64,000 nucleotides of DNA. Source: an uncultured Pseudomonadota bacterium. GTDB lineage: Bacteria > Oederibacteriota > Muellerivitia > Muellerivitales > Muellerivitaceae. Where the stretch lies: positions 416,001-480,000 of the forward strand of contig CAVYRH010000004.1 in assembly GCA_963770835.1 (NCBI GenBank), given 5' to 3'. How positions within the stretch are numbered: the first letter of the stretch is position 1; the number at the start of each line of letters is the position of its first letter. The notes below the pieces were generated by a model. That model saw nothing but the letters and a program-made list of their open reading frames with translations. It searched no databases and was not told the origin of the DNA. The position numbers and the translations under genes were made by a program. Positions 54,563 to 62,621 of the stretch are shown in pieces.

Positions 54563-54709
54563 CAAAGGGACCGGGATCTGGGCGCCCCTGACCCGCCCTT
54601 GGTCAGAAATTGGAAGAATAGGGAATCAGCCGGGGGCTGGTTTTAAGAATCTTAAAAAAATTGGAAGAATTCCGGGTTGAATTGTTCCGAATCGGAACAA
54701 TTCAAATAA

Positions 54710-56001
54710 GGGCACCTCTAAAAATTCTGTTTGAAGGCTTTACGGTCACCTCAAACCAGTTTGCAACCCTCAACCAAAGGAGTTCGTGGAAATTTTTGGC
54801 CCGGAATCTCCCTTCGGCTACTCCCAGAACCTTTCCTTAGCCCCCAAAGTCTTTAAAATCTATGCGTTCACTGCCTCCGGACGCATTCGTCCCATTAAGT
54901 ACGTAAATCGCTGCATGTTGTAAGCCAGGTTCCGCATTCCTATCTTCATCCGGGCCCTCACCTTGCCCACCACCCTCAACCAGTTTCCACCCATCGCCGT
55001 TTCCATGTGCCCGAACACATGCTCGACTCTCGCCCGAACCTTGGACCGCATCTTGTTCAACTTTTCCTGGAACTCCGTCATGGGATGATTCCGATTCGAC
55101 TTGTAATGAATCTGGTTGTTATATCGCCTGCGCTTCAAGGTCTTGTTCTTCTTCTGTGACCGGTATGCGCTGTCTGCCCACACCTTCTTGCGGTTCTCCA
55201 CGTCCAACAACTCCTCGAAAACCTCCCGGTCGGGTACCGAAGCCGCCGTCACCTCAAACTTCCGGACCAGCTTGTGTTTCTTATCCACGTTGATATGGTT
55301 CTTGTACCCGTAGTGATTCACGCCGTTTTTTTGCACCCATCTCGCATCCACGTCTTTTTGCCTCATCTTATCGGTATCCCCCTTCCACTCCTGAGGTGTT
55401 TCCCCCTTCTTGATCTGGCCGTTTTCGTCTTTGGTGTTCCTCTGCCGGGGCACTTCCACTATCGAAGCATCGATGATCTGCCCTTCCTGGGCCTTCAGCC
55501 CGACCCGATCCAGGTGCCGGTTGAATTTCCCGAACAACTGGTCAATCCAGCCGCCTTGGGCCAGCTTGTTGCGGTATAACCAGATGGTCTTGGCATCCGG
55601 CACATCCTTATCCATACCCAGCCCCAAAAACCTCATGAAACTCAGCCGGTCCTGGATATGGAATTGTGTCCTTTCGTCCGCCAGGTTGTATAGGGCCTGT
55701 AAAACTAGCACCTTGAACATTAGTACTTCATCGTACGGGGTACGCCCCGCCTCGCTTTTGCGTTCCTTATCGCGTAATGCCTTGCGCAACATACTGCGGA
55801 AATCCTCCCAGGGCACTACTCGGTTCAAGGCTTCCAGCGGGTCCCCCATTTCATCCAGGGATTTCAAGCGGTCTTGAAGGTCGAAGAATCCGGTTTGGCC
55901 CATTGCGGCACCTCGTTCAAGGATTTTTCAGCGTTTTCACGCGCTGTTTTCTCCTTGTACCTCCTTCACTTCGTCTCTACAACCAATTTTTAGACGTGCC
56001 C
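54710..56001 (-). mobile_element. IS5-family insertion sequence (1292 bp)
   Basis: 17-bp TIRs GGGCACCTCTAAAAATT / AATTTTTAGACGTGCCC (1 mismatch); 4-bp ATAA direct repeats at 54706-54709 and 56002-56005. Confidence 0.93.
54860..55903 (-). CDS. IS5-family DDE transposase
   Basis: DRLSFMRFLG, VPDAKTIW, IIDASIV, DVDARW, GYKNH, WADSAY, RARVEHVFG. Confidence 0.95.
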   Translation of the reverse strand: MGQTGFFDLQDRLKSLDEMGDPLEALNRVVPWEDFRSMLRKALRDKERKSEAGRTPYDEVLMFKVLVLQALYNLADERTQFHIQDRLSFMRFLGLGMDKDVPDAKTIWLYRNKLAQGGWIDQLFGKFNRHLDRVGLKAQEGQIIDASIVEVPRQRNTKDENGQIKKGETPQEWKGDTDKMRQKDVDARWVQKNGVNHYGYKNHINVDKKHKLVRKFEVTAASVPDREVFEELLDVENRKKVWADSAYRSQKKNKTLKRRRYNNQIHYKSNRNHPMTEFQEKLNKMRSKVRARVEHVFGHMETAMGGNWLRVVGKVRARMKIGMRNLAYNMQRFTYLMGRMRPEAVNA

Positions 56002-56510
56002 ATAAGGGAATTTGGCCCTTTTGGAGATAGCCCCTCCCTAGATAGGCCGGTGTGGGTTCCCCCCTGTCTAAGTGCCCGGACTCCGGGCACCTTCCCCCTT
56101 TGGATGTGGTTTTGAGGGGTAGCATAGGGGTAAGTTCCCCTATGAGCGCCTTGCGCTAGGGGGGTATCCGGTCCAAGTGGTCAGAGACTGACCACCCCTA
56201 ACCCCATCTGGGCCGCTTTTACCAACGGTTGGTAAAAACCCCCCGCCAATGGTGGGAGGGATGGCCAGCGGCTGGCCATCTTGCCTCCCAGCTCTGGTTT
56301 TGGGGTCTATGGGTATGCTTCCCTAACGAGCGCTTCCTTTTATTATTGTAAAATCAGCCCATGACAATCCCCCAGGGTTACCAACTTACCGGTTTTTTCA
56401 AAAAAACTTTGGATTAAATCCGCTTTTTCCCGTCTAAAGGCTGTGCTATATGACCATTATCCTATTCCAATTATCGCCTAGTGGAGATGATGGCCCCTCG
56501 GGGATTGAAT

Positions 56511-58250
56511 ATGAAAAAAACGCAATTTTATTGGGCGGCCGCTCTTGGGTTGGGTTTAACCGGGGTGATTTTAACCGGCTGTCCCGGCCGCATTAATCCT
56601 CCCACCACCCCCGAACCACCCGGGACGGCGACTTCCACCTTTACGGCGGAGAATAGCCCCTCCATGACCCCTACGGTTACCCTGCCCCCCACCACGCCGA
56701 CAGCGACCCACACGAACGGAACTACGCCTACCGTGACCGAAACAATCACAAGCAGCCCCACTTTATCGGCGACAGTCACATCCCCCAATTCTCCCACCAA
56801 TACCCCGATCCCCACCCCCAGCTTTACGCCGACACCCAGCGAGTCCCCTACTTCAACTCCGACTTCCCCAGCCACGACCACGGCGACCAACACCGTTATT
56901 TCCACGGCTACGAACACAGGGACCAATACGGTCACTTCCACGTGCACGTCCACGGCGACCAACACGGACACTTCCACGGACACGGATACGCCTTCCTATA
57001 CCCCGACGAATACCCCGACTTTAACGCCCACGAATACGGTAACCTCCACGATCACTGACACCGCGGCCTTCACACCTTCCTCTACCCAAACCTATACCCC
57101 CACCATTACCTCCACCCCGACCAATACGGGAACCCCCACTGGAACCCCCACCTGGACCCCGACCCCCACCGGGACTTGGTTTACCTCCACCCCGACCAAC
57201 ACCCCGACCATCACTTATACTTCCACACCCTCCTGGGTGAACGTGGGGAGCGCGGGCTTTTCCGCCGGTGAGGCATCAAGCACCTCCCTGGCCATCAACA
57301 ACGGAACGCCCTACATGGCTTTTGAGGACGGAGGAAACGGCAACCGAGCGACGGTGATGATGTTCAACGGCACTTCCTGGGTAGATGTGGGAAGCCCGGG
57401 GTTTTCCGCCGGTGCGGTTTCCTCTACCTCCCTGGTCATCGACAACGGAACGCCTTACGTGGCCTATGAGGATGCGGCAAACGGCAACAAGGCCACGGTG
57501 ATGATGTTCAACGGCGCTTCTTGGGTGAACGTGGGGAACGCGGGTTTTTCAGCCGGGGGAGCCGCCTACACTTCTTTGGCCCTTTACAACGGGACGCCTT
57601 ACGTGGCTTTTGAGGACCTGGCAAATGGCTATCTGGCGACGGTGATGATGTTCAACGGCACTTCCTGGGTGAACGAGGGGACCGCCGGCTTCTCGGCCAA
57701 CGAAGCCCCCTATACCTCATTGGCCATTTACAACGGCACGCCCTACGTGGCTTTTAACGCGATTTTCGCATTTAGCGACAACGCCACGGTCATGACCTAT
57801 AACGGCACCTCTTGGGCGGATGAGGGGACGGCAGGGTTCTCCGCCGGCAGCGCCTATTTCACCTCATTGGCATTTTCCAACAGTACGCCTTATCTGGCAT
57901 TCGCGGGCGGGTTTGGTGTCGCCAGCCCGGGCAACGCGACGGTGATGATGTTCAACGGCGCTTCCTGGGTGAACGTAGGGAACGCGGGTTTTTCAGCGGG
58001 AGGGGCCGTGTACACCTCCCTGGCCCTTTACAACGGTACGCCCTATGTGGCGTATGGGGATTCCGCGAACGGCAGCAAGGCAACGGTGATGTCTTACAAC
58101 GGCACTTCCTGGGCGAACGTTGGGAATGCGGGATTCTCCGCCGGCGTAGCCTATTACACCTCGCTGGCTTTTTCCGGAAGCACGCCCTACGTGGCTTACT
58201 TGGATGAGGCGAACGGGAACAAGGCGACGGTGATGATGTATCAACAATAG
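56511..58250 (+). CDS. Lipoprotein with Thr/Pro stalk and 7-repeat beta-propeller
   Basis: Lipobox ILTGC; long T/P linker; seven ~48-aa repeats WVNVG.AGFSAG....TSLA..NGTPYVA......ATVMMFNG.S. Confidence 0.85.
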   Translation: MKKTQFYWAAALGLGLTGVILTGCPGRINPPTTPEPPGTATSTFTAENSPSMTPTVTLPPTTPTATHTNGTTPTVTETITSSPTLSATVTSPNSPTNTPIPTPSFTPTPSESPTSTPTSPATTTATNTVISTATNTGTNTVTSTCTSTATNTDTSTDTDTPSYTPTNTPTLTPTNTVTSTITDTAAFTPSSTQTYTPTITSTPTNTGTPTGTPTWTPTPTGTWFTSTPTNTPTITYTSTPSWVNVGSAGFSAGEASSTSLAINNGTPYMAFEDGGNGNRATVMMFNGTSWVDVGSPGFSAGAVSSTSLVIDNGTPYVAYEDAANGNKATVMMFNGASWVNVGNAGFSAGGAAYTSLALYNGTPYVAFEDLANGYLATVMMFNGTSWVNEGTAGFSANEAPYTSLAIYNGTPYVAFNAIFAFSDNATVMTYNGTSWADEGTAGFSAGSAYFTSLAFSNSTPYLAFAGGFGVASPGNATVMMFNGASWVNVGNAGFSAGGAVYTSLALYNGTPYVAYGDSANGSKATVMSYNGTSWANVGNAGFSAGVAYYTSLAFSGSTPYVAYLDEANGNKATVMMYQQ

Positions 58251-58895: not shown

Positions 58896-61800
58896 ATGAA
58901 ATATTCGATCCGGATTTTGGGATTCATCGTTTCTTTATCCTTGCTGGCCCCTTCGATCTCCCCGGCCCAATCCGCTGGAAGGCAACAACTGCATGGCCAT
59001 GTGCCCGACCTGGTTTTGAAAAAAGCCCCATTGTTGGGGCACGTGCCTTCCTCGAAAGTTTTCCACCTGTCCTTCGGGCTTCCCCTGCGTAACACGCAGG
59101 AGCTCCAGGTCCTTGTCCAGCAACTCTACGACCCCAAAAGCCCCCAGTATCGCCATTGGCTTTCGGTGGAGGATTTCACCTCCCGCTTCGGCCCCTCGGC
59201 CTCGGATTACCAGGCGGTCCAGGAATTCGCGAAAGCCCACAACCTCACCGTGGACCGTACCTTCGCCAACCGCATGGTGGTGAGCGTATCTGGCGCGGCG
59301 GGGGACGTGGAGAATGCCTTGAACGTCCAACTCAACCGTTACCAGCGGCCCGACGGGACCGAGTTTTTCTCGCCCGACCGGGAGCCCTCCCTGGACCTGG
59401 CCGCGGCGCTTTCGCACGTCGGCGGGCTGGACAACGCCCACCCGCCCCGCCCCGCCGGCCTTCACCGCGCGGCGGCAAATAAAACCAAGCCGGTAGCGGC
59501 CACTGGTTCGGCGCCGGACGGGAACTATTGGGGGAATGATTTCCGAAACGCCTATTGCCCGGGTGTCACCCTGACCGGCGCGGGGCAGGTGAATGCCATC
59601 ATGAGCTTTGACACCTATTACCCCAGCGACATCCCCGCCTATATCAGCCAGGCGGGAATCGCGGCCAACGCGGCCGCCGTCACCAATCTCTTTTTCGATG
59701 GTTTAAGTCCCAGCGCCACCCCCGTCGTGGAGGAAACCGTCTTGGATATCGAGGACACCCTGGCCGTAGCGCCCGGGCTTGCCCAACTGAGGATGTACAT
59801 GGCGCCTGATACGGTCAGCGGCGACGACCTGCTCAACGCGATCGTCTCGGATAACCTGGCCAAGGTCACCAGCGCCTCCTGGATTTTTGGCGTGGACACG
59901 ACGGAAAGCCAGGATTTGACGGAGATGGAGGCCCAGGGACAGTCCTTTTTCATCGCTTCGGGCGACGATGGCGCCTGGTCCCCCACCTGCAATAACGGTT
60001 TGGCTTGTTCGGAGGACTTGATGAATGAACAACCCAACCTCACCGTGGTGGGTGGCACCGAACTGACGGACAACGGCACGGGCGGAAGCTGGGCCGGCGA
60101 GGTGGCTTGGCCGGGAAGCGCGGGCGGGATTAGCCCCGACCTCCCCATCCCCAGCTACCAGGCGGGCGTGAACATGGGCACCAACGGGGGTTCCACCACC
60201 AACCGGAACATTCCTGATGTGGCCCTAGTGGCAACCAACGTCGAAATTGTCTTCAACGGCAGCCAAGATCCAGTCGGCGGCACGAGCTGCGCCGCGCCCC
60301 TTTGGAACGGCTTCACCGCGCTCGTCAACCAGCAGGCCGCGCTCCAGGGGAACCCCCCGGTGGGCTTCGTCAACCCCGCCTTGTACCAGATCGGAGAGGG
60401 ATCCCATTACGGTTTTGATCTCCACGATATCCAGTCCGGGAACAACCCCGGCATCAACAACGCGACCGGTAACAACGCCGTGCCGGGTTACGACCTGGTC
60501 ACGGGCTGGGGATCTCCCGCCGGGCAATTCCTGATCGACGACCTGGCCAGGGTGGCCTTTCCCACGCCGACCATGACCCCCACCCCCACTCCCACGCCCC
60601 CCTGCACCACCCAGATTTCCCTTCAACTGCTGGAATTCACTTCCTGCTCTTCCTCCACGCCGTCGGAAACCTTCGAGGTCATCAACAACGGCGCCGCCGT
60701 CATCAACCTTTCCGACGTCGTGATCAAGTACTGGGCGGACGACACCACGGGACAAGCCCTAGTGGGCTCGGTGAATTACGGCGGCTGTTACGGCTTCGAC
60801 TGCGCGTCGGCCATGACCGGAGTGGTGGTTACGGCCACCAATTTCTCGCCTGCCTGCGGACCCGATCCCACGAACCAGGCCAACTGGGAAATGGCCATCT
60901 CCAACACCAGCACCGGCCAGCTGGGCCAAGGCCAGACCTGGGGCAACCTGCAGATCCAAACCCACTTGTCCAATTACGGCGCTTTGTCACCGGGCACGGC
61001 CGATTGGTACAGCCCCTGCAACGTGGGAGGCGGGACCACCTACACCGACGACATCCATTACGCGCTCTATTACCAGGGAAACCTGGTGACGACCTCGGGC
61101 GGCGCACCGCCTTCCTGCAGGCCCTATTGCACCCCGGGCACCCTCACGCCGGGCCTGACGCCCTCGCCCACCAACACCCCGACCCGTTCGATGACGCCGA
61201 CTGCTACGTCGTCACCTACGCTCACGGTGACCCGGACGCCCACGGCTAGCGCGACAGCCTCCCGGACCCCTACCGCCTCATTTACGACGACCGAGACGCC
61301 GAGCCTGACCGCGACGGCTTCCCCCGCGCACACGGCGACCTTTACGCCCACCGGCGTGCTTGGCACGGCCACTTCCACACCCACGGGGACGCGTACTTCG
61401 ACAGCCACGGCCACGCCCAGCTTGACCGTTACGGCCTCGCCCACGGCGACCGTCAGTACGACGGCTACTTTCACCCCCACTCGTCCAGCCGGAACCGCTA
61501 CTTCCACGCCCACGAGGACCGCCTCCTCCACGGCCACGGCGAGCCCCACCGGCACCCGTGCCACGACGGCGACGCCGTCTAATACTCCTTCGGGGACTGC
61601 GTCTTCCACGCCTACGAGGACCGTTACCTTAACGGCCACGGCGACGATCACCCCGACCACCACTCCCTCGCCCACCTCCACTCCGGCGGTGACAGCAACT
61701 CCCACCGCCACGGGCGGGACCGCCTGCGGCACCAGTTCCCTGGACCTCCAATTGGAGGAATTCGGTGCCTGCGGCTCCAACCAGAACCAAGAGACCTTCG

Positions 61801-62621
61801 AGGTCATCAACAAGGGGACCTCGGCGGTGACCTTGTCCGATATCACCATCAAGTTCTGGGCAGACGACACGACCGGTACGGCCATGGTCGGAGCCGTCAA
61901 TTACGGCGGCTGTTTCGGCCAAACCTGCACGGCCGTGACCGGAACGGCTATCAACACGTTGAATTTCTCACCCGCTTGCGGGCCCAGCAACACCCAGCAA
62001 GCCAATTGGGAAATCACCCTCTCCAACACCGATACGGCCACCCTGGGGGCGGGAATCACATGGGCCAACCTCCAGACGGCGGTCCATCTCTCGAGTTTTG
62101 CCAACTTCTCACCTGGGACCGGCTTCTGGTATAGCCCCTGTAACGTGGGGAGCGGCTCGACCTACACCAACAACCTCAATTACGCGTTGTACGTGAGGGG
62201 CGACCTGGTGACGGCCTCGGGCGGCGTGCCGCCTTCCTGCCGGCCCCTGCCTACCTGCACGCCTTCCGGCGCGGTAGTCCGATCCCTCGACCTTGCCCTT
62301 CACGGGGAAACCCCCACGCCTTCGGCGGTCGCGAAACGCGGAACGGGATTATCGGTGGTGGCGGCGCCCAATATCTCACGGGACGGCCAACCTATCCGGT
62401 TCCAGGTCACCTTGGGACAATTCTCACCCCTTGAGTTGGATCTTTTCAGCTTGACCGGAGAAAAGGTTTTTGAGGCCCAGGCCCAGGGGGAAGCCGGGTC
62501 CAACACCATCACTTGGGAATTGACGAACAGCTTGGGAGAGAACATGGCCAGCGGTCTTTACATCTATATCGTGCGGGCCGGCGATTCGATCCAGACCGGG
62601 AAAGTCGTCGTGATTCATTAA
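58896..62621 (+). CDS. Sedolisin (S53) peptidase with two CBM3-like domains and a C-terminal FlgD-Ig/T9SS-like domain
   Basis: Pro-domain (DPKSPQYRHWLS); catalytic E-xxx-D (ETVLD), SGD, GGTS; Ca-site GYDLVTGWGSP; duplicated FEVIN.G...LSD..IK(Y/F)W domains; terminal ASGLYIY...KVVVIH. Confidence 0.9.
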   Translation: MKYSIRILGFIVSLSLLAPSISPAQSAGRQQLHGHVPDLVLKKAPLLGHVPSSKVFHLSFGLPLRNTQELQVLVQQLYDPKSPQYRHWLSVEDFTSRFGPSASDYQAVQEFAKAHNLTVDRTFANRMVVSVSGAAGDVENALNVQLNRYQRPDGTEFFSPDREPSLDLAAALSHVGGLDNAHPPRPAGLHRAAANKTKPVAATGSAPDGNYWGNDFRNAYCPGVTLTGAGQVNAIMSFDTYYPSDIPAYISQAGIAANAAAVTNLFFDGLSPSATPVVEETVLDIEDTLAVAPGLAQLRMYMAPDTVSGDDLLNAIVSDNLAKVTSASWIFGVDTTESQDLTEMEAQGQSFFIASGDDGAWSPTCNNGLACSEDLMNEQPNLTVVGGTELTDNGTGGSWAGEVAWPGSAGGISPDLPIPSYQAGVNMGTNGGSTTNRNIPDVALVATNVEIVFNGSQDPVGGTSCAAPLWNGFTALVNQQAALQGNPPVGFVNPALYQIGEGSHYGFDLHDIQSGNNPGINNATGNNAVPGYDLVTGWGSPAGQFLIDDLARVAFPTPTMTPTPTPTPPCTTQISLQLLEFTSCSSSTPSETFEVINNGAAVINLSDVVIKYWADDTTGQALVGSVNYGGCYGFDCASAMTGVVVTATNFSPACGPDPTNQANWEMAISNTSTGQLGQGQTWGNLQIQTHLSNYGALSPGTADWYSPCNVGGGTTYTDDIHYALYYQGNLVTTSGGAPPSCRPYCTPGTLTPGLTPSPTNTPTRSMTPTATSSPTLTVTRTPTASATASRTPTASFTTTETPSLTATASPAHTATFTPTGVLGTATSTPTGTRTSTATATPSLTVTASPTATVSTTATFTPTRPAGTATSTPTRTASSTATASPTGTRATTATPSNTPSGTASSTPTRTVTLTATATITPTTTPSPTSTPAVTATPTATGGTACGTSSLDLQLEEFGACGSNQNQETFEVINKGTSAVTLSDITIKFWADDTTGTAMVGAVNYGGCFGQTCTAVTGTAINTLNFSPACGPSNTQQANWEITLSNTDTATLGAGITWANLQTAVHLSSFANFSPGTGFWYSPCNVGSGSTYTNNLNYALYVRGDLVTASGGVPPSCRPLPTCTPSGAVVRSLDLALHGETPTPSAVAKRGTGLSVVAAPNISRDGQPIRFQVTLGQFSPLELDLFSLTGEKVFEAQAQGEAGSNTITWELTNSLGENMASGLYIYIVRAGDSIQTGKVVVIH

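Follow-up and report, generated by a model that had tools for sequence, protein, structure and literature searches.

A row of odd-centred palindromes at whole helical turns, homologous to in-frame palindromes of orphan ParB-family genes

Background

KorB of IncP plasmids acts through dispersed palindromic operators of one sequence that form a plasmid regulon, and Noc also links DNA to the membrane. The orphan proteins considered in this work resemble KorB in belonging to the ParB family and in structure (matches to 8qa8 and 8qa9), whereas KorB is not known to have mixed arrays of sites. With ParB/parS and Noc/NBS (PMC7383237) they share the fold, a palindromic site, predicted here to be read by a dimer, and an arginine-guanine/glutamine-adenine rule at the same helix position, R173 contacting guanine 1 in ParB-parS and Q158 contacting adenine 1 in Noc-NBS. 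They differ from both in their odd-centred sites, in about ten predicted specificities per genome with each site inside its own gene, in having no adjoining parA, in mixed phased arrays, and in the membrane segment and VirB8-like domain carried by part of the family; the parS consensus used for comparison was that given in PMC7022226.

A further comparable system is BisD/bisS of ICEclc, for which PMC12409273 describes a ParB-like CTP clamp tied to conjugation, with proven sites that are odd-centred palindromes inside coding genes. BisD is part of the element, has one specificity and has its two sites in other genes, whereas the genes described here lie outside the conjugation cluster and their sites are diversified. 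In staphylococcal plasmids, SmpO and the oriT mimics (PMC8136818) also combine one protein family of diverged DNA specificities with non-coding DNA that mimics different sites, although the protein is unrelated and mobilisation, which is shown in that system, is only proposed here. Orphan proteins with a ParB-CTPase fold that are found outside the parAB operon and fused to lineage-specific domains are described in the main text of PMC12704722, according to which sequence does not predict the nucleotide; the words 'palindrom', 'transmembrane' and 'FCPU426' are absent from this main text, and its supplements could list the ParB-like family. In a preprint (bioRxiv 10.64898/2026.07.06.735840), ParB serves as a reporter only, and defences that depend on VirB8 or VirB2 are described. 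Our literature search, made mostly without subscription papers or supplements, brought up no account of a diversified ParB family whose members have cognate sites in their own genes, nor of arrays that are mixed and phased, nor of ParB fused to VirB8; the parts are known, in an arrangement that we did not find described in the literature searched.

Results and discussion

Palindromic units in the window

The array in the window, by which we mean the whole analysed stretch of 64,000 nucleotides, is a row of odd-centred palindromes spaced at whole helical turns and homologous to the in-frame palindromes of orphan ParB-family genes. Eight inverted repeats are centred at 54597, 54649, 54691, 56081, 56133.5, 56186, 56227 and 56270, and once the IS5-family element is excised their centres lie 52, 42, 94, 52.5, 52.5, 41 and 43 bp apart, as the sequence-only reading had reported. 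It had also described the array as split by this element, and we could confirm that the insertion occupies 54710-56001 on the reverse strand, with its transposase at 54860-55903 and a 4-bp target duplication; it is one of six near-identical copies. Array units were defined by a fixed rule that asks for one base at the centre and for pairing at 8 or 9 of the 9 inner positions, under which six units are found in 482 bp (IS5 excised), with spacings of 42, 94, 105, 41 and 43 bp. The same 482 bp never gave more than two units in 5000 dinucleotide shuffles (0/5000 reached three), and just 6 of 9,489 equal-length windows of the genome hold at least four. The DNA of the array is covered by contigs of the public runs X1, X2 and X7, of which X1 may be the source sample, and the X2 contig spans 55981-56321 with zero differences from the window; the array is therefore not an assembly artefact.

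At its left end, 54588-54606 holds a decayed odd-centred palindrome (centre 54597) that falls below the 8/9 rule and is followed by a common A-rich flank, as is the unit at 54640-54658 (centre 54649). The unit centred at 54691, with 14-bp arms, occupies 54677-54709 together with its flank, and the sequence that matches it best, other than itself, is the palindrome lying in frame in a ParB-like gene of genome G016 (92%, query bases 105-143, E 1.3e-8). For the left part of the array as a whole, five of the matches listed fall inside family genes, the best non-self one being this G016 segment. A contig of run X1 joins the window at 54680, and the 30 bases that it brings, read by eye, encode the helix that precedes the site in family genes, so that a family gene carrying the 54691 site likely exists in the X1 sample. 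To the right of the insertion, units lie at 56072-56090 (centre 56081), 56177-56195 (centre 56186, with one inner mismatch), 56217-56237 (centre 56227) and 56260-56280 (centre 56270). According to the recognition code presented below, the G at -6 of the 56186 unit predicts an arginine variant as its reader and the A at -6 of the 56227 unit a glutamine variant; the 56270 unit has G at -6. By eye, the 56227 unit, also found in an array of G015, is one base per half off the site in the paralog G000:C26:46127-47698, and the 56270 unit is near the site in the paralog G000:C8:85670-87706.

The palindromes had been called unrelated, which proved wrong, as the units have flanks in common, both among themselves and with those of other arrays. 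What had been counted as an array unit at 56133 is even-centred and belongs to a separate dispersed repeat (56104-56156) that is matched 12 times in its own genome and also in 12 of 24 same-family genomes, and that lies five helical turns from each neighbouring unit. In same-family genomes this repeat is often found embedded in other repeats.

This dispersed repeat, and a strand that folds better than its shuffles (z -4.3), would suit ordinary terminators, REP-type repeats or structured RNA, but the folding score stems from the palindromes themselves, and one-base loops, absent T runs, helical phasing, the link to the recognition helix and the lack of an Rfam match (one at E 3.6) all speak against such an origin, which we find hardly credible. 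For six of the eight units it is refuted by the loops, the absence of T runs, the Rfam result and the phasing: the array shows neither the stem, loop of at least three bases and T run of an intrinsic terminator nor the near-identical copies of REP elements, many copies being found only at 56133. The earlier preference for double-stranded operator-type sites over terminators is thus upheld, there being no terminator-like site in the array and its units being helically phased. A CRISPR or other repeat-spacer array was rejected because there are no identical direct repeats, only short shared flanks, and no Rfam CRISPR match.

On its left the array is bordered by a small lipoprotein gene, with a frameshifted paralog (63%) at G000:C8:171077-174415 (L173), and on its right by genes for a lipoprotein with a long Thr/Pro stalk and repeats (56481-58250) and for a sedolisin-type protease with cellulose-binding-like domains (58896-62621). 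The left flanking gene has one weak match in the 30 family genomes, and the right flanking gene belongs to a multi-copy family.

Two of the six IS5 copies sit exactly 19 bp from a site centre, namely the copy at 54710 in the window and that at G000:C3:135140, which lies in a ParB-like gene and breaks it. A second element, labelled IS1595-type from our own reading of its sequence, has four copies (G000:C4:643086, C4:85221, C26:330777 and C19:97381), and when their flanks were read by eye all four appeared to lie in palindromic sites of the family type that carry the common flank; an intact unit lies within 200 bp of three of the four, against a background of 9%.

Other arrays and helical phasing

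Using motif-led searches, we found at least five further arrays in the same genome (C3:196618, C4:642952-644280, C10:84272-84920, C20:85077 and C26:331857), that at C4:642952-644280 being split by an IS1595-type element, and clusters of at least four units in at least eight relatives (G002, G003, G015, G021, G023, G041, G043 and G046). Their loci differ: in G043 an array and two genes lie between rplI and dnaB, where the genome of the window has zero units. A two-unit scaffold with differing cores is common to the arrays of four genomes and to gene segments, and G003 (84% complete) has an array and zero family matches at E 1e-40.

Phasing was measured over all clusters of at least four units except two whose palindromes are of another type; the cluster at C4:150765, which occupies coding DNA and does not keep the phase, was retained in the count. 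The spacings fit a period of 10.48 bp best, and 63 of 70 fall within 1.5 bp of a whole turn, where 34% are expected and 0/5000 nulls reach this value; a second set, in which one array is counted twice, gave 30 of 35 spacings in phase at a period of 10.50 bp. All five spacings of the window array are in phase, but with 133 of 5000 nulls doing as well its phasing is weak when taken alone. From the whole-turn spacing we infer that proteins would be bound on one face of double-stranded DNA. The two clusters set apart are of a different odd-centred palindrome family, which we take to be ORF6N-type; 2 of their 6 spacings are in phase. Clusters of this palindrome family adjoin several ParB-like genes (L045, L065, L067, L136 and L154) and are mostly unphased at 10.5 bp.

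The units have gene-like flanks, tandem 42-bp duplications exist inside genes, several family genes are broken and the arrays tolerate IS insertions, all of which would suit a reading of the arrays as relics, namely pieces of ParB-like genes that were inserted and lost again and again at one spot, or products of module duplication, whose symmetry is kept by arm-to-arm correction and which have no present function. Such an origin is improbable in our view, since no other gene remnant was found in the six arrays of this genome, spacings of 2 to 12 turns between different units remain in phase, and the cores vary on a common scaffold yet both arms stay matched.

Palindromes inside orphan ParB-family genes

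ParB-like genes contain the flank and palindrome of array units as well, in frame and directly behind the helix-turn-helix. In the genome of the window a different palindrome occupies this position in 10 of 11 family frames, a count from which the canonical parB (C11), a plasmid-type parB (C12), one truncated frame and an identical duplicate (C22) were excluded. Members of the ParB-like family were found in 17 of the 30 same-family genomes. At E 1e-30 the family comprises 193 clusters, and among 80 members with DNA, excluding canonical ParB, two outgroups and one duplicate, the palindrome is found in 63, of which 40 are perfect, and 17 are without a clear one. Palindrome centres are distributed 70:2:1 over the codon phases, the control window giving one match, and the commonest centre lies exactly 82 bases past the helix anchor; further copies occur at intervals of 42 bp. 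Up to four in-frame copies at such intervals were seen in L046, L053, L118, L120, L137 and L160. None of nine second tandem ParB-like domains carries a palindrome. A subgroup with such a second domain, without a palindrome in it and without a membrane segment, comprises L104, L134, L138, L141-L143, L146 and L151.

The N-terminal part of these proteins matches Spo0J, Noc, ParB and KorB, and a central helix-turn-helix domain is recognised by profile and by structure; PF02195 scores above its cut-off in most paralogs, and G74 and R77 (the GxxR arginine) are invariant in 24 sequences. No ParA was found among the scanned neighbours of family genes, which are unrelated and often accessory, and the canonical parB is separate, on C11. 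A canonical ParABS centromere was accordingly rejected, with no ParA in the neighbourhoods scanned and with odd-centred, differing units as against one even-centred 16-bp parS.

The peptide encoded by the palindrome is the sole segment with pLDDT <50 in the structure model, so the constraint on the in-gene palindrome likely lies on the DNA. By eye, the sites of this genome's own genes never recur exactly in its own arrays, several differing by 1-2 bases per half. The sequence-only reading had been reminded of variable palindromic segments in phage DNA-binding proteins, and the resemblance stood as far as palindromes inside genes for DNA-binding proteins are concerned, while the genes themselves are chromosomal orphans of the ParB family in this bacterial family and not phage genes. 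A phage source found no support, the right half of the array having no match in phage or plasmid DNA. Viral contigs gave 6 distant matches only, and plasmid proteins, among the ten matches listed, only 26-34% identity.

Covariation of the palindrome with the recognition helix

Palindrome and recognition helix vary together, in keeping with the Arg-G/Gln-A rule of ParB and Noc. When 193 protein windows were compared as predictors of palindrome similarity, the seven residues of this helix were the best of them, with a partial r of 0.33 (60 rows, palindrome-encoding columns removed and the rest of the protein controlled for). Where helix position 3 is arginine, base -6 is G in 7/7 cases (others 1/55), and where it is glutamine, base -6 is A in 10/10 (others 2/52), one row with a doubtful palindrome being left out of these counts. 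Helix position 3 aligns with R173 of canonical ParB, and this agreement with a rule proven in crystals of ParB and Noc is the strongest point of the analysis.

A fresh set was then formed by 119 of 150 further proteins (26 had already been seen and 5 were too gapped or short), with bases inferred from the protein. Complementary middle codon bases at the expected centre were found in 75 of the 119, and nine of ten control centres gave 0-5 and one gave 20. Among the 75 symmetric members, glutamine went with A in 35/35 (others 2/40) and arginine with G in 6/6 (others 2/69). As helix and palindrome are about 80-170 bp apart, joint inheritance is possible, and kin within these counts are not independent; a tree-aware test on a quick tree gave about 4/4 independent pairs for each rule and 0 opposite (p = 0.125). 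An initial mutual-information scan, in which 3 of the top 20 pairs lay in the helix, was replaced because it was confounded by palindrome-encoded columns and second domains.

That arrays are silent cassettes recombined into ParB-like genes so as to vary the loop peptide would find some backing in the flanks, which are shared on both sides and could support recombination, but the loop is predicted to be disordered, the DNA tracks the helix and not the reverse, and array spacings are often not multiples of three, and we consider this explanation very improbable.

Taken together, the in-gene site, its covariation with the helix and the Arg-G/Gln-A rule suggest that each protein binds the site in its own gene and that the arrays pool such sites for many variants. 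With a good degree of confidence, we propose that each variant loads on its own-gene site and that the arrays would load several variants side by side. The description of the locus as a collection of sites for different DNA-binding proteins, already offered by the earlier reading, agrees with these results.

Membrane segment, VirB8-like domain and conjugative elements

A hydrophobic, predicted membrane segment was found in 33 of 55 long complete family frames. The domain that follows it is NTF2-like with a VirB8 fold, its top 12 structural matches being all VirB8-like (best match with Z 14.9, rmsd 2.6 A and 127 aligned residues), and it has zero matches to Pfam by sequence. It was recognised in 16/79 and 21/150 members, and a profile built from 12 of the 16 finds the small membrane-protein gene beside VirB4 on the integrase-bearing C2 element (E 3e-7; 87% by profile comparison). 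A complex prediction for the VirB8-like domain with the homolog of the resident element scored 0.02, which speaks neither for nor against an interaction.

Two conjugative elements, at G000:C2:170289-185000 and C12:1-13000, share a gene order in which a VirB4-like gene precedes genes for a small membrane protein and a TPR-GGDEF protein; the C2 element has an integrase, and the C12 element ParA/ParB and a coupling protein. VirB4 of these elements is present in 13 of the 30 family genomes. Its co-occurrence with the ParB-like family is weak (10/17 versus 3/13 genomes), family genes lie outside the conjugation cluster in both cases examined, and no perfect unit was found within the C2 or C12 elements.

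Proposed role of the arrays

Each ParB-like protein would bind its own-gene site as a dimer, loading there as a clamp of the CTP type. In an array, several such clamps would sit on the same face of the DNA, and the locus would be held at the membrane. Through the membrane segment and the VirB8-like part the proteins would make contact with the resident conjugation machinery, on which the DNA would hitch-hike; with the site inside it, no gene would be parted from its own key, and the arrays would gather keys for many variants, much as in the staphylococcal oriT mimics. Hitch-hiking on conjugation is the purpose that we tentatively prefer for the arrays, at somewhat less than an even chance; against it stand the minority of members with the VirB8-like domain, the position of the genes outside the conjugation cluster, the absence of perfect units from the two elements and the weak co-occurrence with VirB4. 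A fuller lock-and-key version, which we hold to be rather doubtful, has selfish one-gene ParB clamps that load in their own gene and plug into the host's conjugation machinery via the membrane anchor and VirB8-like domain; loci on the chromosome would assemble key-rings in phase, and whichever variant is in circulation could then tether or mobilise them.

A different purpose for the same units, whose identity it leaves untouched, would be that of decoys or a regulatory sink, which titrate or sense selfish ParB-like genes, or allow these to silence neighbours as KorB does, without any role in transfer. The arrays of this genome stand alone, at least tens of kb from any family gene, in intergenic DNA beside unrelated genes, and some neighbours of arrays or genes are defence-like (ImmA/IrrE, DUF2971), as such a purpose would lead one to expect; it has, however, no need of helical phasing across different sites, and the neighbours have no common function, so that we regard it as possible but unlikely.

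Conclusions

In the literature searched we came upon neither stand-alone arrays that would pool the sites of many paralogs on one helix face nor a ParB joined to a VirB8 fold. The family amounts to dozens to hundreds of natural protein-site pairs, each gene coming with its own predicted target, and the recognition code of ParB thereby becomes directly testable far beyond the ParB/Noc pair; it may also supply orthogonal clamp/site pairs for chromosome labelling. If the arrays do act in transfer, they would represent a new way to move for genes that have no machinery of their own.
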